In this document: piece after piece, positions 41,726-60,283 of the stretch
How the letters are laid out: every line of letters begins with the position of its first letter
How positions within the stretch are numbered: the first letter of the stretch is position 1
From: Marsupella aquatica
Taxonomy: Eukaryota > Plantae > Marchantiophyta
Direction: 5' to 3'
NCBI GenBank assembly: GCA_973895155.1
Contig: OZ316893.1
Coordinates: 26,276,798-26,340,797, forward strand
Length of the DNA: 64,000 bases
The notes under the pieces: generated by a model
Database searches by the model: none
What the model was told of the DNA's origin: nothing
Seen by the model: the letters and a program-made list of their open reading frames with translations, nothing else
Made by a program: the position numbers and the translations under genes

Positions 41726-41814
41726 GGCCTCTTCTACTGCCCCCTCTGAATGCTTGTGGATAGGACAGGGCTTTGCACAATCGAATTCTACATGTTCCCC
41801 AAAATTGTCATGTA

Positions 41815-43224
41815 ATGTATAGCTTCCTGCTGATTGAGCCCTTGACTGCTTGCGAAGGGGTTTTCCCTTGGAAGCCTTCCTTCAGTGGTACAGTTTCGCG
41901 CTCCAAATTGCGTTGGCAGTCTAGCGGTATTCAGCAGCCTTTGAGTCCTACTCATCGATGCCTTCATTTTGTACCGATAAAGAACCGGTTGAGCTTTGGT
42001 GCGACACAGCAGGGACTGCTGGAGTCGGCCTGTTGTAGAAAATCTAGCCTGGTGAATTGCTCAAAGCTTGTGAGACTGCCACTTCTACATCCATCAAGCA
42101 TGTCTCAAGTACCTGTTGCTTTACGGTTCTCCAATTTGGAGGTAACTGACGACTGTGATGACCACGGACAGAGGCTACCGTCATCGCTCAATGCTGTCTG
42201 CCGCTGTGAAGCATCCAACGGAAATCCAGCAGGCTCACTTTATCTCAAAGATGGAGAACAGCGACAGATTAAACCGAAGAAGCGGGAATTCTGCAAGAGA
42301 TGTGACAAGCCAGCATCATTGTGTATTTGCCATCATGTTAAAACTGTGGTTGAAAACAAGACATCAATTGTCATCCTGCAACATCCTGAGGAGAAGAGAC
42401 ATCACTTGGGGTCTGCGCGAATCGCTCTCCTTGGGTTGCAGAATGTAGAAATCATTAATGTTCCAGAGGTAGATGAGCCTGTTTCATACAGGATACGAGA
42501 AAAGGTTCCAGGTTCCAAAAGATCCCTCACTGGAAGAGGAGGGAAGAAAGCGCAGAAGCTGAAGGAGGAACTCGAGAAGAAGAAATTACTCCCGAAGATT
42601 CAGCCGGCAGCAACATACCCGGCTGAACAGCAGCTGCGGAGTCAACAGTCGCCCAATCTAGCTAATGGGAAAGGTTCTCACCTTGAATCCAGAAGCACTA
42701 CAATTCCTGGTGGAGACCGCCAATTAGCCCAGAGCAGTTCATTTCCCCCCTCGTGGATTAACCTGCAACCAGATGTGGGCCTTTTGTTCCCGAGTGAGAA
42801 GGCGCTCGATCTTTGGCCCGCTGGTTTAGGACTAACAGAGACCTCTGATTCTGCACTCTATTTTGAATCTAAGGTTGGAGATGGAGAACGGCTCCCTAGC
42901 AATTCACCAAGCCAGTTGATAGTACTGGATGGTACTTGGTCCAAAGCTAAACGGATATATTTCGAGAATCCGTGGTTACATTCGTTGCCTCACTATCGAT
43001 TGCCAACTCTCCAAGATAGCAGATATGGACGTCTTCGGCCTGAGCCTAAACCTGGCTTCGTCTCTACCGTGGAAAGCATTGTGTTAGCCCTGCAATTGCT
43101 GGAGCCTGAGACACGGGACCTGGAATCACTTTTATCTGTTTTTGACAGCATGATGGAGGATCAATTGCGTGCCGTGACAGAAAAAAGAAGTAGCAAGGGC
43201 GCGTATCGTGAGAGCAGTTGTTGA
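41815..43224 (+). CDS. DTW-domain protein (tRNA-uridine aminocarboxypropyltransferase, TapT/DTWD2-like), intronless ORF; true start uncertain (41815 or 42100)
   Basis: It carries the N-terminal CxxCxKPxxxCIC, then ILQHPEE...LGSARIA, LLFPS, the LIVLDGTWSKAK DTW motif and VSTVESI. Confidence 0.9.
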   Translation: MYSFLLIEPLTACEGVFPWKPSFSGTVSRSKLRWQSSGIQQPLSPTHRCLHFVPIKNRLSFGATQQGLLESACCRKSSLVNCSKLVRLPLLHPSSMSQVPVALRFSNLEVTDDCDDHGQRLPSSLNAVCRCEASNGNPAGSLYLKDGEQRQIKPKKREFCKRCDKPASLCICHHVKTVVENKTSIVILQHPEEKRHHLGSARIALLGLQNVEIINVPEVDEPVSYRIREKVPGSKRSLTGRGGKKAQKLKEELEKKKLLPKIQPAATYPAEQQLRSQQSPNLANGKGSHLESRSTTIPGGDRQLAQSSSFPPSWINLQPDVGLLFPSEKALDLWPAGLGLTETSDSALYFESKVGDGERLPSNSPSQLIVLDGTWSKAKRIYFENPWLHSLPHYRLPTLQDSRYGRLRPEPKPGFVSTVESIVLALQLLEPETRDLESLLSVFDSMMEDQLRAVTEKRSSKGAYRESSC

Positions 43225-50573: not shown

Positions 50574-51735
50574 CGAGAAATGCAAAGGAATATTCCTTAT
50601 CTAGTTTTCCCTAGACTACTTTCTGATCGTCAGATCTCTATACATTTAATGAGAAACGTCGGATTGCTTCGAATGGGGTAACTGGCTCCTGTAGTTGGGA
50701 AAACCGGGAAAAAGGGAGAAATGCTAGGAGTGCTCCTTATCTACTAGACTAATTTCTGATCGTCAGATCTCCCTAGATTTAATGAGAAACTTCTGAATTC
50801 TTTGAATGGGGTAACTGGCTAGTTGGGAAAACTGGGCAAGAAGGAGATAAGCTAGGAGAGTTCCTTATCTCTTTTCCTAGACTAGTTTTTATCGTCACCT
50901 CTCCCTAGATCTAAGGAGAGACGTTGGATTGCTTTGAATGGGGTAACTGGCTAGTTGAAACTGGGCCAAAAGGAGAAATGCAAGGAATATTCCTTATCTC
51001 CTGTAGTTTTCCTAGACTGATTTCCGATAGTCAGATCTCCCTAGATTTAATGAGAAATGTCTGATTGCTTTGAATGGGGTAACTGGCTAGTTGTGAAAAC
51101 TGGGAAACAGGGGAGAAATGCTAGGAGTGCTCCTTAATCTATTGTGGTTTGCTTAGACTAATTTCTGATCGTCAGATTTTCCTACATTTAAAGAGGAAAG
51201 TAGGATTGCTTTGAATGGGGTAACTGGCTAGTTGGGAAAACTGGGAAAAAGGGAGAAATGCTAGGAGTGCTCCTTCTCTATTGTAGTTTTCCTAGACCAG
51301 TTTGTGATCGTCAGATCTCACTAGATTTAATGAGAAACGTCTGATTGCTTCAAATGGGGTAACTGGCAGTTGGGAAAACTGGGAAACAGGGAGAAATGCT
51401 AGGAGTTCTCCTTATCTATTGTAGTTTTCCTAGACTAGTTTGTGATTGTCAGATCTCACTAATTTTAATGAGAAATGTCGGATTGCTTTGAATGGGGTGT
51501 GGCTAGTTGGGAAAACTGTGTAAAAGGGGAGAAATGCTAGGAGTGGTCCCCCAGTGGTCCTTATCTGCTATAGTTTTCCTAGACTAGTTTTTTCATGTCT
51601 AGGGAGCCTAGATTTAAGGAGAGACGTCAGACTGCTTTGAAAGGGTTTAGTGGCTAGTTGGGAAAACCGGGCCAAGAGGAGAATTGCTAGATATGTTCTT
51701 TATCTAGTTTTCTCAGACTTGGGAAACTGGCTACC
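50574..51735. repeat. Tandem array with a ~132-147-bp unit, ~8.5 copies; one more decayed unit at about 58440-58555 beyond the copia insertion
   Basis: A GAATGGGGTAACTGGCT-like anchor occurs at about 50671, 50804, 50936, 51072, 51213, 51352, 51491 and 51638. Confidence 0.92.
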
Positions 51736-51842
51736 TGCAAACCAAAAGTGGCTAGTATTGCTTAGTGGGGTGAACTTTGGCTAAAACTTGCACTAAAAAT
51801 GAGCTGTTGTACGGCTATCATGTTGGCAAATAGTGCTTAGTG

Positions 51843-52245
51843 TGTTGGGTATTTACTCTTACGTCTAGGTTAGGTATGACGTGGTTGGTACAACAATGTG
51901 GGTTGGTACAACTATGTGGTTAGGTACAACTACGTGATTAGGTACAACTATGTGGTTAGGTACAACTATGTGGTTAGGTACAACTAAGTTGCACACTATA
52001 TCATAAGAGGCATGTGTGCTTGGAGAGGTAGAACCAAGGCTCATTGTTATGGAGCCACTTGAGAGATAGGGAGAGCTTACACTGTGGAGACTCGGTATAG
52101 CCGACGGGCTTAGAGTTCAGTAAAGCTCTCTTGTGTGTTCCCGTGGACGTAGCCTCAAGGAGGTGAACCATGTATCTCTTGTGTCGACTATTGTGCGTTG
52201 GATGGTTCATGGGCTTGCCGTTACGATCGTCGTCTATGCTCAACA
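51843..52245 (+). repeat. 5' LTR (403 bp) with six 18-bp U3 repeats
   Basis: It runs TGTTGGG...CTCAACA and contains TATGTGGTTAGGTACAAC-like units at 51881-51984. Confidence 0.97.
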
Positions 52246-52247
52246 AT

Positions 52248-52259
52248 TGGTATCAGAGC
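52248..52259 (+). promoter_or_regulatory. Primer-binding site complementary to initiator tRNA-Met
   Basis: TGGTATCAGAGC lies 2 nt after the 5' LTR. Confidence 0.95.
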
Positions 52260-53399
52260 ATGCTTGGGAGGTGACGTGTGTTCGTGACGGGATTTCATGA
52301 CGGTTTTTCCAGCGTTGAGTGTTGGTGGATTTTCCAGAGTTCCATCGCATGGAACTTGGAGTTTATGGGCTCAACGGATAGATCAGGGCAAGAGCTTTCT
52401 AACGGTGTGAAGAAATCGTTGAACGGAGCTCGTGGTGCAGAGAGATCTAAGTTTTCGTCGTTCTGGATTTTGTGAAGAAAGTTGGCAATCGACTCGGAGG
52501 GAGAAGCGTCAAGTGTTTTGACTCAACGGAGAGATTGAGGCAAGACGATTGTTTTTGAGTCCGGGATTGGCTCTTTGATGCAAAGAGGAAGGCTAAGCAA
52601 AATCAATTACCTTGTTGGACTTGGTGACGACACCAAGTGCAATTGATCAACATTCGTTGTTGACAAGGTACCATTTTTTTCTCTTTGAAAAACTGATTCG
52701 AAATTGGCTATGGCAATTGAGAGAAATCTGTCATCTTTACCAATTTTTTTCTCCCTCGTTCTTTCCTCGTTTTGGGTGCTTCTTATATCGATCTTCATCG
52801 CCTCGGAGTCTAGTTTCCAAATCTGAAATCGGATCTTGATTTAGTCAAAACCCGAGTGAGATATCTTGCGTTTGGTGTCGAGGGGTACATTCTGCCGTGT
52901 GTATTTTCTGCGCGCGCGACCAGATTTCGACGACGAAGGGTGGTAGGGGGTTTTGGGGGTTCGAGGACACATGTCAGCCCCTCGATTGTTCTTCCAAAAT
53001 TCCCACAGGGCCTGTACAAGGGTCATAGAATATTCCAAAAAACCAGAGAGCTATTTTTTGACCGTCCGACAAAGATTTCATCCGCCGAACGGTAACTTTT
53101 TTGGTTATTTTTCGGCGAGGTCGTAGCCATTGAAGTTGGCAATGCAGCGCACCAATCACATCGCAATTCCGACAACGGGTTGTACTTGGTATTTCGGTTA
53201 TTCCCTGAGGTGGTCAAAACGGGGGAGTTTCCCAAGGTTTTACCCACCTCGACCGAAATTTGAATAACTTTTCCGTCAAATTTCGATTTTGATTTCGGTT
53301 TTCAGTATTGGACTCCTAGCTTTGTGGGCTACGCGGCGGTGTTGAGTTTCGAGTTTTTTGAGAAGTTGTGAAAAACAACATTTTTTGTGACTTTCTCAT

Positions 53400-54434
53400 A
53401 TGAGTGATTCGGAGGAGTTTTTCGAAGACGTGGAACTTGAAGCACGAGGGTCACCGCGGAGGTTTCAGGGGCAGAGAGAGGAGCAGGAGGAAGAGCACGT
53501 GACACCGATACCATCACCGGTGCGGCGTGTGGTGGAGGAAGCAGTACTACTACCGGAGCTCACGGTAAAGAAGAAGATGGGGACTTTCAAGCTTGGGGGA
53601 CCCAAGTATGAAGTGACAAAGTATGATGGGCGCTCTGACTACTTGCTATGGGAGAAGCAGGTGAAGGGAGTGCTTTATGCGTCAGGGATGGGCCAACTGC
53701 TGAGCCCTCGTGAAGACGATGTTGATGAGAAACAATGGGACCGCATGCAGGAGCAGGGAGTGTGGTGTGTTACACTCTATCTCATGCCTCCCATCATCAA
53801 GCAGTTGGGTGCACATAAGGATTGCATGTCCTTATTTGCGGAATTGCAGAGCAAGTATCACCGCAAGGAGTTGTCGAACCGGCTCTACACTTCCTACAAA
53901 CTGATGAGTTTCAGGATGAAGGAATCTGGTACGAAGTTGCAAGACCATGTGGATGCTTTCAACGACATGGTCGTTGACTTGGAAAACCTTGGGGAGACTT
54001 TGAATGATGAGACGAAGGCTCTGCAGCTTCTTAGTTCATTGCCTCCATCTTACCAGTCCCTATCACGAGTGTTGTTGCATCGTGATAGGGATACCATTTC
54101 ATACAATGACGTGGTAAGTTCTCTGCTTAGTGATGATCTTCAGCAGAAGATGCACATCACGTCACAGCCTTCATCATCTGGTGCTGCCCTCAATGTTAAC
54201 CGTGGGAGGAGTATGCAGCGACCAACTGGGGACCGTAGAACCCAGTTTAGATCTAAATCCAGATCTAAGTCCAAGGGTAAATCCCCTCAGAGGAGGCAGG
54301 TGACATGTTGGAAGTGCAACCAAGTTGGACACTTCAAGCGAGACTGTAAGGGAAAGGCAGCGGAAACTTCATCGGCAAATGTGGCTAGGGCTGATGGAGA
54401 AGCTGATTTACTCAATGATGAGTATGTTTTATGA
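53400..54434 (+). CDS. gag: Copia Gag (344 aa) ending at an in-frame TGA
   Basis: It has the KYDGRSDYLLW copia gag N-terminal motif, LLSSLPPSY and the CCHC knuckle CWKCNQVGHFKRDC. Confidence 0.95.
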   Translation: MSDSEEFFEDVELEARGSPRRFQGQREEQEEEHVTPIPSPVRRVVEEAVLLPELTVKKKMGTFKLGGPKYEVTKYDGRSDYLLWEKQVKGVLYASGMGQLLSPREDDVDEKQWDRMQEQGVWCVTLYLMPPIIKQLGAHKDCMSLFAELQSKYHRKELSNRLYTSYKLMSFRMKESGTKLQDHVDAFNDMVVDLENLGETLNDETKALQLLSSLPPSYQSLSRVLLHRDRDTISYNDVVSSLLSDDLQQKMHITSQPSSSGAALNVNRGRSMQRPTGDRRTQFRSKSRSKSKGKSPQRRQVTCWKCNQVGHFKRDCKGKAAETSSANVARADGEADLLNDEYVL

Positions 54435-57400
54435 AGCCGGGGGTATGCCCTGTGCACGTCATCTAGGAGAGCAGATGATGTGTGGATTCTTGATTGTGCT
54501 TGCTCTTTTCATATTTGTTACATTCGTGAGTTTTTCAGTTCTTACTCTATTTCAAACGGTTCAGTTCTGATGGGAAATGATCACTCCTGTCAAATTGAGG
54601 GAATTGGGTTTGTGAAGATTCAAATGTTTGATGGCGCTGTGCGCACAGTGTCCGGAGTCAGGTATGTACCTGGCATGCGTAAGAATCTGATTTCACTCGG
54701 TGTGTTGGATTCAAATGGTCATCAATGGAGCGTTATTGATGGTGAACTTCAAGTCAGGTCGGGAGAGACAGTGATTTTGAAGGGGAGTAGACAAAAGAAT
54801 TTGTATGTGTTACAGGGCAATACTGTATGTGGAGAGGCCAATGTAACCAAGTCTCACGAGGAGATGACTCAACTGTGGCATTCACGGCTAGGCCACATGA
54901 GTGAGAAGGGTTTGGCTATCTTACGGAAGAATGGACTCATTTCTGATTTGCAATCTTGTAAATTAGAGTTTTGTGAGCATTGCATTCTTGGAAAGCAGCA
55001 TCGTCGTGCTTTTGGTGTTGGAACTCATCGTTCCAAAGCGGTTCTTGAGTACATACATAGTGACGTGTGGGGTCCATCCCCGACTCCCTCACACTCTGGA
55101 AAGTTGTACTATGTATCATTTATTGATGATTACTCAAGATTTGTGTGGATTTATTTCATGACGCATAAGTCTGATGTCTTGTCCATTTTTAAGAAATGGA
55201 AGGCCCAGGTGGAGAATCAGACTGGAAACACGATCAAGTGTTTGGATACAAGGGTGAAGAGTTTGAGGTCAGACAACGGCGGGGAGTACACTTCAATGGA
55301 ATTTGAAGAGTACTGTTCAGAACAGGGGATAACTCGCCATCTCACCACAGTTTATACTCCGCAGCAGAATGGTGTCGCTGAGAGGCTCAATCGGACACTG
55401 TTGGAGCGGTCACGGAGTATGTTGAGCCAATCAGGTTTACCACAAGAATTTTGGGCAGAAGCTGTCAATACCGCAGCTTATTTGGTAAATCTTTCTCCTT
55501 CTAGTGCTATCAATTTCAAAACGCCGTTTGAGATGCGCTATAAGCGGCAAGCAGACTATCATGGCTTGGTAATTTTTGGAAGTGATGCATATGCTCTCAC
55601 ACCAAAGCAGAATAGGACCAAGTTGGATCCTACCTCCAGGAAATGTGTTTTTCTTGGGTACCAGAGTGGTGTGAAAGCCTATAGGCTATGGGATCCTATT
55701 GCCTGTAAGCTCGTTGTCAGTAGGGATGTTTCCTTCAATGAATCCAGATTATTGAAGGAGGGGGAGAATACTCAGGTCTCCCGTACTGACAAAAGAAAAT
55801 CTCCTATCCCGGATCTCGTTGAGGGGGAGATTGGTTATGAGGTGCATGACCGGAGAGAAGGAGTTGCTCCAATTATGGAGCTGGTTCCTGTGCCAGAGGA
55901 ACCAGAGGAGTTTGTTGATGCTGGTGAGCAGCAAGTGGATGCTGTTGAGCTTCAAATTGTACCAGCACACACAGATCAACCGGAGTCATCGGCTAGAAGA
56001 ACATCTGGTCGCACTGTACGCGCTCCATCAAGGTATGGACAGTGGGTTGATTCATCTCAACTGCAAGAGGATGATTTTACAACTGATGATGAGGGTGATG
56101 CGTTAATTTTGGAAGAAGGAGAACCTTCTTCATTTCATGAGGCAAGTGCTTCAAAGGAGAAGCAAAAGTGGACTGCAGCAATGCAAACAGAGATGCAGTC
56201 ACTAAAGGACAACAAAACTTGGGAGCTTGTTAAGCTGCCTAAGGGTCAGCAAGTGGTGGACAGCAAGTGGATTTACAAGCTGAAGGATAATTCCATAGGA
56301 GGTGGATCGAAGGTCTACAAGGCTAGATTGGTAGCAAAGGGATTCACACAAGAGAAAGGTGTGGATTACAATGAGGTCTTCTCACCAGTTGCTAAGTACT
56401 CTACAATACGACTATTGTGTGTACTTGTTGTAATGTTTGGTCTGCTCCTAGATCAGATGGATGTTGTCACAGCTTTCCTCTATGGCACATTGGAAGAGGT
56501 GATCTTCATGAGACAACCGCTAGGTTTTGTGAAGAGAGGACAGGAGGAATTGGTTTGCAGATTGCTGAAATCCTTGTATGGATTGAAGCAGTCACCAAGA
56601 CAGTGGAACAAGCGGTTTGACGATTGGATTCGGTCACAAGGTTTTCACAGAAGTGTATTTGACCCTTGTGTGTATTTGAAACCGGTGAAGAATGTTGTCT
56701 TTGGGTTCATTGTTTTAGTACTTTATGTGGATGACATGCTAATTGCAGCCAAGGATAGGTCTGAGATTGTTAAGCTCAAGGCACTGCTTAGTGCAGAGTT
56801 TAAGATGAAGGACTTAGGGCCAGCTAAGAGGATTTTGGGTATGGAGATCACTAGGGACTTGGAGGCTGGCAAGCTATGGTTGACGCAGAGCAGTTATGCG
56901 AGGAAGGTAATTGCAAGGTTCAACATGGAGAATAGCAAGCCAGTAAGTACCCCGTTGGCTCCACACTTCAAGTTATCATCAGCGTTCTGTCCTACGGATG
57001 ACACAGAGAAGGGGTTGATGTCAAAGGTTCCATATGACAAGGCAGTGGGGAGTCTCATGTATTTGATGACTTGCACTAGACCTGATCTTGCCATGGCTAT
57101 GGGCAAGGTGAGCAGGTACATGTCGAATCCAGGGAAGGTACACTGGGAAGCAGTGAAGTGGATTATCAGGTACTTGAAGGGTACCGTGGATCATGGTCTT
57201 TTATTTGATGCGAATGCAAAGAATGCTAGATCATTGATTGGCTATGTAGATTCTGACTATGGACAAGATTTGGACCGAAGGAGATCAACAACAGGATACG
57301 TGTTCACACTTGGCGGTGGATGCATAAGTTGGAGGTCTACTTTGCAGAAGTGTATTGCTCAGTCTACTACAGAAGCGGAGTATGTTGCAGCTGCGGAAGC

Positions 57401-57707
57401 AGCAAAGGAAGCGATTTGGTTGGATAGACTTATCACTGAAATGGGATTGCCACAGGGGAATGTGAAGCTCCATTGTGATAGTCAAAGTGCGCTCCACCTT
57501 GCTGTGAACCAGGTGATGGACAGCAGAGTGAAGCACATTGACGTCAGGTACCATTTTATCAGGCAGGCTGTGTCTGATAAATTGTTTGAGCTAGTCAAGA
57601 TTGATGGTAAACTCAACCCGGCTGACGCATTTACCAAAGTGATTCCTTTGGAGAGTTTCTCTAGACACCGTGACGTATTGCAGGTTTTGCAATTGCATCA
57701 CAAGTAG
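54435..57707 (+). CDS. pol: Copia Pol (protease, integrase, RT, RNase H), in the same frame as gag with no initiating ATG before the protease motif
   Basis: Motifs are WILDCACSFH (protease), LWHSRLGH...CEHC (GAG-pre-integrase), HSDVWGP, LRSDNGGEY, LYGLKQSPRQW, LYVDDML and ADAFTK. Confidence 0.95.
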   Translation, partial: SRGYALCTSSRRADDVWILDCACSFHICYIREFFSSYSISNGSVLMGNDHSCQIEGIGFVKIQMFDGAVRTVSGVRYVPGMRKNLISLGVLDSNGHQWSVIDGELQVRSGETVILKGSRQKNLYVLQGNTVCGEANVTKSHEEMTQLWHSRLGHMSEKGLAILRKNGLISDLQSCKLEFCEHCILGKQHRRAFGVGTHRSKAVLEYIHSDVWGPSPTPSHSGKLYYVSFIDDYSRFVWIYFMTHKSDVLSIFKKWKAQVENQTGNTIKCLDTRVKSLRSDNGGEYTSMEFEEYCSEQGITRHLTTVYTPQQNGVAERLNRTLLERSRSMLSQSGLPQEFWAEAVNTAAYLVNLSPSSAINFKTPFEMRYKRQADYHGLVIFGSDAYALTPKQNRTKLDPTSRKCVFLGYQSGVKAYRLWDPIACKLVVSRDVSFNESRLLKEGENTQVSRTDKRKSPIPDLVEGEIGYEVHDRREGVAPIMELVPVPEEPEEFVDAGEQQVDAVELQIVPAHTDQPESSARRTSGRTVRAPSRYGQWVDSSQLQEDDFTTDDEGDALILEEGEPSSFHEASASKEKQKWTAAMQTEMQSLKDNKTWELVKLPKGQQVVDSKWIYKLKDNSIGGGSKVYKARLVAKGFTQEKGVDYNEVFSPVAKYSTIRLLCVLVVMFGLLLDQMDVVTAFLYGTLEEVIFMRQPLGFVKRGQEELVCRLLKSLYGLKQSPRQWNKRFDDWIRSQGFHRSVFDPCVYLKPVKNVVFGFIVLVLYVDDMLIAAKDRSEIVKLKALLSAEFKMKDLGPAKRILGMEITRDLEAGKLWLTQSSYARKVIARFNMENSKPVSTPLAPHFKLSSAFCPTDDTEKGLMSKVPYDKAVGSLMYLMTCTRPDLAMAMGKVSRYMSNPGKVHWEAVKWIIRYLKGTVDHGLLFDANAKNARSLIGYVDSDYGQDLDRRRSTTGYVFTLGGGCISWRSTLQKCIAQSTTEAEYVAAAEAAKEAIWLDRLITEMGLPQGNVKLHCDSQSALHLAVNQVMDSRVKHIDVRYHFIRQAVSDKLFELVKIDGKLNPADAFTKVIPLESFSRHRDVLQVLQLHHK

Positions 57708-57887
57708 AGTTTTCTTAAACATTCATTGTAATTACTGATATATGCTCTTCCTCATTCCTATGTATTAGGCTACGGCTTAGTTCTGGTTTGCTCTAGTTAG
57801 AGAGGGAAACCGGTTTGGTTTCTGTCCAGAACTTCCCGCTGAGGGATCATATACATTGGCAGTATTACTCTCCCCTAGACCAGAGTC

Positions 57888-57897
57888 AAGGGGAAGA
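57888..57897 (+). promoter_or_regulatory. Polypurine tract
   Basis: AAGGGGAAGA lies 1 nt before the 3' LTR. Confidence 0.9.
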
Positions 57898-57898
57898 T

Positions 57899-58301
57899 TG
57901 TTGGGTATTTACTCTTACGTCTAGGTTAGGTATGACGTGGTTGGTACAACAATGTGGGTTGGTACAACTATGTGGTTAGGTACAACTACGTGATTAGGTA
58001 CAACTATGTGGTTAGGTACAACTATGTGGTTAGGTACAACTAAGTTGCACACTATATCATAAGAGGCATGTGTGCTTGGAGAGGTAGAACCAAGGCTCAT
58101 TGTTATGGAGCCACTTGAGAGATAGGGAGAGCTTACACTGTGGAGACTCGGTATAGCCGACGGGCTTAGAGTTCAGTAAAGCTCTCTTGTGTGTTCCCGT
58201 GGACGTAGCCTCAAGGAGGTGAACCATGTATCTCTTGTGTCGACTATTGTGCGTTGGATGGTTCATGGGCTTGCCGTTACGATCGTCGTCTATGCTCAAC
58301 A
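57899..58301 (+). repeat. 3' LTR (403 bp)
   Basis: It matches the 5' LTR and is followed by the TSD TAGTG. Confidence 0.97.
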
Positions 58302-60177
58302 TAGTGGGGTGAACTTTGGCTAATATTTGCACTAAAATTGAGCTGCCATAAGGCTATCTTGTTTAGGACCTGTGTTATTTTAAGGTCTTTTCTTTTTGGC
58401 CAGTGTGACAAAGGTCATCTTGTGTGAAGAAGACTATGTTAGGACAGTTCCTTATCTACTTTTCCCAGATTAGCTTTTGACAGCCAGATCTCCTAGATTT
58501 AAGGATGACCGTTAGATTTTGACTAATGGGATCTGTTGCTAGGTGGGAAACTGCCTGAAGGTAGAGAGCAAACCTAACAAGTGTTTGCCAAAAGTAGCAA
58601 GGACTTTTCAAAAAGGTGGAATCCATCTCATTTTGGCCGCCGGAAAAATAGTGTTTGGGGCACCTTGTTACTGTCTTGCATAAGGTGGGGCGGTTTTTTT
58701 AGAATTTAGGGAAAGGCACCCGCAGTGGTGACAGCCCATTGTTTAATGTAGGGAGGACTGGCAACTGGAGAGAGCCAGTCTTACTTAGGAGGGCTGGTGA
58801 CCTCATCCCTATACAAGGTTAGTTTTTGGCAAGCGAGAGTTTCAGTCAAAAAGGATCAGGTGGCAGTTCAAAATGAGCCATGAAGAAGATTTGGTGAGTT
58901 TGAAAGGAGCAGCTTAAGACACACAGGTGAGTTGAGGGGTGGCAATCATATCAGATTAAGGAGAACTTGATACAAAAACGTTCAGAAAAATGTGAAGTAA
59001 ATTCTCTGGAGGGGAATGGAACCCCTCAATGTGTCCAAGGACACATGCTCCCAGGAAGAATTCAAATACATATGGGCATGGAAGCCTTGGATTCCCCATT
59101 TCACCTGTCCTTGAGTTGTGGGTGGCAAATTTCATGCAACGATTTGAGCAAGAGGTGGCAAGTTGGTAAATGTCAGTGCGAGGAGAGCAGCGACTTGCGG
59201 CAATGAAAATGAGGAGGTGGCAAGTCAGCAAATGCGGGGGTAAATGTCAGTGCAAGGAGAGTGGCAACATTACTGTGGGCTGGTGGGCAGGAGTAGAAAC
59301 TTTACCCCCTTGCCCTTTAGGAATGATGGTTAGTTTCTACCAGATGGAAGTCCAATTTTTTCTAATTTTTGTAAAAAAAACTTCCAATTGTTCTGTTATG
59401 GTAGCCAGCAATATGTTGAGGGGAAGAATTGGCAAACAATGAAAAAAATGTTGCACATCAGTGTCATGTCATTGTCTTGCATGATGACTCTTTTCCTACA
59501 TTATAGTGCTCTTCTTCTTCCTTTGATGTAGATGGTCACCGCTTGGGCTGCTGAATGGTCAGAACTGTCTAGGTCTCCCTACTTGATAGTACTCATTTTA
59601 GTAAAACGAGAGAGAGTACAGAGAGCCTATGTTACAAGTCATGTGGGAGAGAAACAGTGACGAAGCAGGGAGACACGTCTACAGTATGTGCCTTTTCCTA
59701 GCTGACTGCAATCATTTTCCTAACCAGGCCTAATATTTGATTAGGAAAATGTAAACTGCAAAGTAGGAATATGGGAAACTGCAAACCAATGGAATCCAAT
59801 CATAATACTGAACTACATCCCAGCCAATAGGTACAAGGACAGTCACTAAGGGCATTAAGTATGTATATGGCCATGTCCTGGTTTGAGGGCATTGTGAGAT
59901 ATTGAGGGCTTTAGCTCAAGTTTGAGGAGAGATTACGGACCACAATTCCTGTGACAAGAATCTCAACTTACCTAAACATGTGAGCTAATTTTGGAAAGAA
60001 ATAAAACAGTAAAATCCCTGAAACAAGGCAATGCAATAGTGTGTAAAGAACGAAAAACATGTTAAATACCACGTCAAGATTTGCTGGCAAACTTGTATTT
60101 GGCGGAATTTGCTTTTTTTGTTTATAACTGCACAAAACATGTATTTGGAGTTACATATGCCTAGCTTGTCACTATGG

Positions 60178-60283
60178 CTGCCGGACTTAGAATTCAATAA
60201 AGTTCTTGTGTGTGTTTCATGAACATAGCCTTTGGAGAGGTGAACCATGTATATGTACACTACTTGTGTGTTTGTTGGATGTT
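60178..60283 (+). mobile_element. Decayed LTR relic related to the copia LTR
   Basis: GGACTTAGAATTCAATAAAG...TGTGTGTT..ATAGCC...GAGGTGAACCATGTAT...GTTGGATG aligns with the LTR R/U5 region GGGCTTAGAGTTCAGTAAAG...GTAGCC...GAGGTGAACCATGTAT...GTTGGATG. Confidence 0.7.

Follow-up and report, generated by a model that had tools for sequence, protein, structure and literature searches.

Readthrough of an in-frame stop is among the known gag-pol strategies (PMC2194720; 10.1101/2022.12.06.519325). In Tca2 (pCal), a Ty1/copia element of Candida albicans, gag and pol lie in one frame on either side of a UGA, with a predicted structure 3' of the stop; the account of this element leaves the bypass mechanism unresolved and reports that the local junction was insufficient for readthrough in yeast (PMC2194720). 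A UGA also separates gag and pol in VdLTRE5, a Ty1/copia element of Verticillium dahliae, without a CARYYA context and in a layout there termed rare (PMC3441728). Moloney murine leukaemia virus (MLV) sets its ratio of Gag to Gag-Pol by one in-frame stop (PMC2194720, PMC5580714), and an in-frame TGA is kept across the element clade in Tj1, Tcry1 and Tosmo1-3, Ty3/gypsy elements of fission yeasts (10.1101/2022.12.06.519325). Among plant and algal elements, REXdb gives 10% of SIRE (copia) and 80% of Chlamyvir (algal gypsy) as having one stop that parts GAG from PROT (PMC6317226). Judged by analogy with Tca2, VdLTRE5, MLV and this tenth of SIRE, gag-stop-pol is an already known layout. Here we describe a Ty1/copia retrotransposon with this layout in a liverwort, Marsupella aquatica, located in a window of 64,000 nucleotides (nt) of contig OZ316893.1 (assembly GCA_973895155.1, positions 26,276,798 to 26,340,797), for which an earlier reading of the same DNA, hereafter the original prediction, had proposed programmed readthrough of a UGA between gag and pol.

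Plant copia elements are mostly taken to consist of just one open reading frame (ORF), with the balance of Gag and Pol achieved through splicing and early termination, a route shown by Oberlin et al.; a long stretch behind a stop codon is described as inviting nonsense-mediated decay (PMC5580714). REXdb lists Tork, Ale, Ivana, Angela, Ikeros and TAR as single-ORF lineages and SIRE, Bianca, Chlamyvir and Retand as the plant lineages with two ORFs (PMC6317226). The original prediction took it that plant copia elements normally encode one Gag-Pol ORF; single ORFs are listed for Tork and most other copia lineages, but to say that this layout never occurs in plant copia is too strong, given the 10% of SIRE (PMC6317226). 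All verified cases of readthrough in plants were viral as of 2009, and candidates among rice gypsy elements were mentioned by Lao et al. (PMC2754532).

The window contains a complete Ty1/copia element at 51843-58301 (6459 bp), and no second copy was found within the 64,000 nt. Every feature of the element given here by its coordinates lies on the + strand. Its long terminal repeats (LTRs) are identical over 403 bp and the target site duplication (TSD) TAGTG is perfect at both flanks, as the original prediction had noted; this copy is young. The gag gene (53400-54434, 344 aa, with Retrotran_gag_2 and zf-CCHC domains) begins at ATG 53400 and is terminated by an in-frame TGA at 54432-54434, in the context TTA-TGA-AGC, which divides it from pol. 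The latter (54435-57707) runs for 1090 codons free of stops and encodes protease (Pol_BBD), GAG-pre-integrase, integrase, SH3 and reverse transcriptase, confirming that both genes share one frame interrupted by a single TGA. It was equally correct that no ATG lies between the stop and the protease motif. The first in-frame ATG after the stop, at 54570, is pol codon 46, 26 codons behind the one that encodes the catalytic Asp of the protease (WILD motif, 54492-54494, pol codon 20), so that a Pol started at an ATG would lack this residue, which was invariant in 50 aligned sequences.

To compare the stop with that of sibling copies, contigs of four public runs (X1, X3, X7 and X12) were aligned to 54390-54550 at 80% likeness. 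Twenty runs among those listed contain the stretch wholly or partly, five of them with at least half of its words. Differences reaching at least 3% numbered 30 across the four runs, none of them hidden; none fell at 54429-54436, and no insertion or deletion was listed in 54390-54550 in these contigs, which as assemblies lose rare variants. The possibility that most sibling copies carry a sense codon at this place, named in the original prediction, thus did not materialise among variants of at least 3% in these runs. The depth of the comparison was strong in X1, where 472 contigs were aligned, and thin in X7, where one contig covers the stop; X3 includes a contig that matches the window exactly and may be its source. 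Two X12 contigs that span the stop carry 13/80 and 22/119 differences. Over a larger part of the element (window 53300-55700, runs X1-X5), the summed depth of the family was very high in X1 and X2. Near-identical family copies occur in runs coded as three different organisms, and the differences among family copies in the runs are mostly C>T and G>A, which is the pattern that methylated repeats lead one to expect.

Conservation at greater distance was followed through Gag. Three protein searches gave 185 Gag matches with a BLAST alignment; the first was restricted to proteins of 189-602 aa, which favours Gag-only forms, while the profile search had no length limit, and a search for forms of 603-2000 aa returned six matches, all at 27-31% identity. 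After setting aside 27 of the 61 matches with at least 38% identity, in which no zinc knuckle could be recognised (fragments or copies in decay), we observed that 28 of the remaining 34, at 38-82% identity, end in Leu 20-46 residues past the knuckle, mostly as DLL[ND]D[DE]Y[VA]L. Five others end elsewhere, and one, a Marchantia gene model, continues without a protease motif; none of the 34 is fused to protease. Below 38% identity there were 124 matches, of which 25 lacked a knuckle; the 99 scored comprised 50 fused forms, 24 that continue without a recognised motif, 21 that end elsewhere and four that end in Leu. Several clade members come from long, annotated contigs, which indicates that the shared Gag end is not a contig edge. 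Since 28 of 34 close relatives end at the same place, the stop is built in rather than private, and by these sequence comparisons it is a trait of the family and the clade. The junction is real and conserved and not an artefact.

In a FastTree phylogeny of Gag, built from 152 of 219 cores (those omitted were three in four of the Pol-search matches and short fragments), the window fell within a clade of 32 with support of 1.0, in which 28 members have the shared end, three end otherwise, one is the gene model and none is fused. Two more stop-ended forms, one of them from Riccia, were placed just outside this clade with lower support. The closest relatives of its Gag that carry a name are from three liverworts, Calypogeia fissa, Marchantia polymorpha and Riccia fluitans. 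Among the best 120 of 895 Pol matches, otherwise crowded by seed-plant elements, R. fluitans supplied the only liverwort Pol and the nearest named one (61% over 639 aa; the others compared reached at most 48%); its gene model begins behind the protease motif. Several top matches in the same set are named TNT 1-94-like, and the nearest long-form relatives are seed-plant single-ORF elements; on these similarities the element probably belongs with the plant Tnt1-like elements. As a control, we examined distant copia loci on metagenome contigs (21-41% identity) among the matches listed: 43 of the 49 with both knuckle and protease motif are open in one frame, four have one stop at scattered positions and two are out of frame. 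Viral and prokaryote contigs, when scanned, yielded no relative of use, the PDB sequence search gave nothing relevant, and an Atlas search with a stored homologue returned generic plant copia Gag clusters. Separately, a seed-plant Gag cluster (P0207, P0327 and P0328, with Prunus brigantina CAL8989571.1), far from the liverwort clade on the Gag tree, has all three sequences ending in Leu at the matching place (…EFEFAL), and may reflect another gag stop, of independent origin, in a copia family of flowering plants.

The traits of Tca2, VdLTRE5 and Tj1, namely a single in-frame stop and its conservation in family and relatives, are both present here. Tca2 is fungal and has an 8-nt purine spacer followed by a bulged pseudoknot (PMC2194720), whereas the gap here is 18 nt and no pseudoknot is conserved. 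VdLTRE5 is fungal too and was described from two copies (PMC3441728), in contrast to a high-copy family and a clade across several liverwort genera. MLV combines a UAG, an 8-nt spacer and a proven pseudoknot (PMC2194720, PMC5580714), none of which is found at this junction, and the gypsy elements Tj1, Tcry1 and Tosmo1-3 keep the leaky context GAA-TGA-CT where this element has TTA-TGA-AG (10.1101/2022.12.06.519325). EVD and other Arabidopsis single-ORF copia elements have the same need for excess Gag, but obtain Gag from an RNA that is spliced and terminated early, and Gag-Pol from the unspliced one (PMC5580714), while in the liverwort element the unspliced RNA already ends Gag.

Within the plant lineages, the element departs from the single gag-pol ORF that prevails in Tork (Tnt1-like). 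SIRE elements mostly have overlapping or spaced ORFs and an extra 3' ORF, the latter in 74% of them and thus a trait rather than a strict rule (PMC6317226), and were described as +1 by Atkins et al. (PMC5009743). Neither an extra 3' ORF nor a length of ~10 kb was found here, with 191 nt from the pol stop to the 3' LTR and 6459 bp in total. There is also no gag-pol spacer, and the primer-binding site (PBS) is presumably of the full tRNA-Met type, unlike the half-tRNA-Ile type of Bianca. A gag-pol spacer and a half-tRNA-Ile primer are the traits given for Bianca (PMC6317226); the words liverwort and Marchantia are absent from the main text of that source.

We then considered whether the codons behind the stop behave as coding sequence. 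In 144 fused relatives, the positions 11-14 residues before the protease Trp, downstream of an acidic stretch, are hydrophobic in 66-81%. In the window the stop falls within the acidic stretch (position -17), and GYAL occupies positions -14 to -11, in the pol frame and 3' of the stop; the hydrophobic stretch GYALCT (54441-54458) has the same spacing to the protease Trp as in fused relatives. Natural changes within its ALCT part are silent and fall on the third codon position; for the ALCTSS codons (54447-54464), five of the six listed variants are silent third-position changes. An AlphaFold monomer model of the first 142 pol residues was confident from residue 10 onward, and its best structural matches were retroviral proteases, with weak E-values. 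As judged from these sequence patterns, the codons just behind the stop are under protein-type constraint, and the sequence behind the stop is likely translated. On the other side of the junction, the acidic Gag tail DLLNDEYVL (54405-54431; relatives have DLL[ND]D[DE]Y[VA]L or something close to it) is conserved and may act as a peptide or RNA signal. Across the clade its conservation far exceeds that of the linker before it, although fused elements vary freely here. EYVL, with which Gag ends, also resembles GYAL of pol (54417-54458; 10 of 21 bases alike). A short duplication as the origin of the junction was considered and found unneeded, the knuckle-to-protease distance of 45 being close to the median of 43 in fused relatives (range 20-58).

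Taken together, we consider a programmed bypass of the stop, most likely UGA readthrough yielding Gag-Pol, to be the probable explanation of this arrangement. Under it, most ribosomes would stop at the UGA and release Gag, a near-cognate tRNA would occasionally decode the UGA to give Gag-Pol, and the protease would then free the enzymes from Gag-Pol. Readthrough would in this way replace the splicing and early-polyadenylation route by which single-ORF Arabidopsis copia elements obtain excess Gag. As a stimulator, a hairpin that begins at +19 may help in this family; RNA elements farther away, or a protein factor, would be equally compatible, as with Tca2, where the local junction was not enough. 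This predicted hairpin, with 12 bp and an 8-nt loop (54453-54484), is stable in the family and partly broken in relatives, and showed pair probabilities of ~0.9 or more in all folded windows. The region 54435-54490, which was picked by eye and after the fact, has a folding energy of -22.4 kcal/mol (z -2.2 relative to dinucleotide shuffles, 5/200); the stability of the hairpin was matched in 8 of 2000 synonymous recodings, and 12 of 1417 56-nt windows of the coding region, in three clusters, fold as well. The whole of 54432-54520 was not unusual (z -0.6, 52/200 shuffles), and Rfam gave no match up to E 1. On this modelling, we read the hairpin as a trait of the family that may assist the bypass.

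Several observations weigh against readthrough. The context TTA-TGA-AGC-CGG fits none of the described leaky contexts with which it was compared (CARYYA; UGA-CGG; +4 C, CT, CTAG). Of the natural variants listed for the four runs, four of the seven in the 12-bp stem disrupt pairing, and none is compensatory. The three codons closest to the stop tolerate amino-acid changes, and pol residues 1-9 have a pLDDT below 50 in the monomer model, which consequently does not place them within the protease. For relatives below 80% DNA identity the Gag end is known from protein, and the identity of the UGA and the in-frame pol are known only at 80% and above. In addition, the 38% cut was set after the matches had been seen, with 27 of the 61 above it set aside for a missing knuckle. 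Finally, the sequence across the stop, TTTTATGAAG followed by C, has the look of a 3' splice site; the leader also holds, just behind the PBS, a donor-like site at 52271 (6/9 consensus letters), which together with an ATG at 52260 would join pol in frame.

The last two points belong to the main rival explanation, which we regard as unlikely, although it survives better than the others: unspliced RNA would give Gag only, and a minor spliced RNA, with its acceptor AG behind the stop, would give Pol from a leader ATG or a Gag fragment. Foamy viruses make Pol from a spliced RNA with a leader ATG. Here the AG directly after the stop (54435-54436) is invariant and stands behind a U-rich run, with a branch-like CTCAAT ~20 nt upstream; it is also the start of a Ser codon, which likewise accounts for it, and AAG is a weak splice acceptor. 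The leader (52246-53399, 1154 nt) has eight moderate splice-donor-like sites, and from the TATA-like box to the start of gag there are 14 upstream ATGs. Such a number makes scanning to the gag ATG look hard, and leader splicing, shunting or internal entry therefore seems likely; that the leader may be spliced or bypassed anyway agrees with a spliced pol RNA, as does the removal by splicing of the region between the ORFs in Ogre elements (PMC6317226). However, a phase-fitting donor of the same score is available for 6 of 19 upstream ATGs, and hence the fit of the leader donor is not rare. Within Gag no phase-2 donor exceeds 6/9, and the three that reach it would delete most of Gag. The gag-pol frame is, moreover, kept across siblings without any insertion or deletion, a constraint that splicing would not need.

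More doubtful is the version of readthrough put forward in the original prediction, in which an MLV-like purine spacer and an H-type pseudoknot drive the bypass; our preference for readthrough as a whole includes the small share that we allow this version. The pairings exist in this copy as described, with stem arms at 54453-54464 and 54473-54484, the loop AGGAGAGC and its partner, the proposed second arm GCTCTTTT, at 54502-54509. Purines make up six of the eight bases that directly follow the stop. Besides the hairpin being more stable than synonymous recoding would give, a 12-bp stem with at least seven loop pairs arose in only 8 of 2000 such recodings. The spacer was rightly called purine-rich, but the structure does not follow directly after 8 nt as in MLV and Tca2, since stem 1 starts 19 nt after the stop, leaving an 18-nt spacer. 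As drawn, the pseudoknot has its loop fully paired, which leaves no connecting strand. Its second arm is complementary in this copy and not conserved: six of ten natural variants in stem 2 disrupt a pair, one of them carried by ~13% of the X1 sibling depth and two, both loop changes, by all of the X12 depth. In the small G-rich hairpin four of five variants disrupt pairing. This test of structure conservation is coarse, because the variants are unlinked columns and some trace to decayed copies or, 3' of 54473, to unrelated elements. Furthermore, no local fold in the coding region is more stable than a 13-bp stem inside gag (54056-54092, -23.1 kcal/mol), whose loop can also pair downstream (9 nt) with no stop preceding it, which suggests that pseudoknots of this kind on paper are not rare in the element. 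Of the conservation that the original prediction proposed to check, that of the TGA held in the four runs and that of the stem and pseudoknot pairings did not (4/7 and 6/10 variants disruptive). With the stem at +19, stem 2 broken by most variants and no compensatory pair, neither the MLV-like design nor the pseudoknot is supported by the sequences compared.

We consider it about equally improbable that Pol is started independently, by an internal promoter close to the junction, by re-initiation or at a non-AUG codon before the protease Asp. In-frame CTG, ACG, GTG and ATT codons do precede the Asp, but CTG 54450 and ACG 54456 vary at the third letter in relatives, and so does GTG 54480 in X12; the ATG overlapping the stop opens a frame of 11 codons that is not pol. 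A minor promoter at the junction has been described in Tca2, where Pol nevertheless followed the LTR promoter (PMC2194720).

That the stop is simply damage, either a private nonsense mutation or the mark of a non-autonomous family borrowing Pol from single-ORF helpers, is very improbable and already largely refuted: single stops between knuckle and protease do occur in four of the 49 listed single-ORF control loci, at scattered places, but here the stop is kept in siblings and in the runs of other species, the Gag end is shared over 38-82% identity with no fused form in the clade, and 1090 open pol codons follow. A frameshift masked by an insertion or deletion in one copy was rejected, such changes being absent in the four runs. 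Selenocysteine, organelle-type editing and a changed genetic code were set aside on general grounds.

Returning to readthrough, its possible evolutionary setting can be drawn only tentatively. A liverwort copia clade, nested among single-ORF plant elements, might have switched independently to programmed UGA readthrough by means of a signal unlike the described contexts and pseudoknots, possibly tied to the acidic Gag tail (DLLDDxYxL) while it sits in the ribosome. Taken in all its parts, we hold this proposal to be rather unlikely, and clearly less secure than readthrough itself.

The remaining parts of the element agree with its assignment to Ty1/copia: the LTR ends, a 5-bp TSD, a PBS, a polypurine tract and the order Gag, protease, integrase and reverse transcriptase were all found. 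The 5' LTR (51843-52245, 403 bp, TG..CA) contains an 18-bp tandem array of 5.9 copies and the TATA-like box near 51996, and is preceded by the left copy of the TSD (51838-51842). The PBS, TGGTATCAGAGC at 52248-52259, matches what we take to be the 3' end of the initiator tRNA-Met. Pfam domains follow in the order Gag, zinc knuckle, protease barrel, pre-integrase, integrase, SH3 and RVT_2 (behind rve), and no Pfam row for RNase H was obtained for pol at E 0.001. The polypurine tract lies at 57884-57897, the 3' LTR, with the same sequence as the 5' LTR, at 57899-58301, and the right copy of the TSD at 58302-58306.

As for its surroundings, the element stands beside or inside an array of ~138-bp repeats (6.9 copies; 50602-51549), and a 62-bp stretch on its left (51763-51824) is repeated directly on its right (58302-58363) at 87%. 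At 60173-60252 the sequence is 78% like part of the LTR and is perhaps the remnant of a related LTR. A host ORF of 486 uninterrupted codons with a DTW domain is located at 41764-43224.

In a search with subscription literature largely outside its coverage, we found gag-stop-pol described for no copia clade of liverworts or bryophytes, and nowhere in the literature searched was it given as the prevailing layout of a Tnt1-like copia clade in land plants. A recently active clade with a fixed stop and 3.3 kb of pol behind it must solve the Gag:Pol balance and the problem of decay in some other way than the single-ORF elements. Annotation pipelines will call such elements dead and split them into two genes, hiding an active family. 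If the readthrough proposed here is true, programmed readthrough would have a case in the nuclear genome of a land plant and, as members of the clade are present in the model plant Marchantia polymorpha, one whose mechanism is open to testing in Marchantia.

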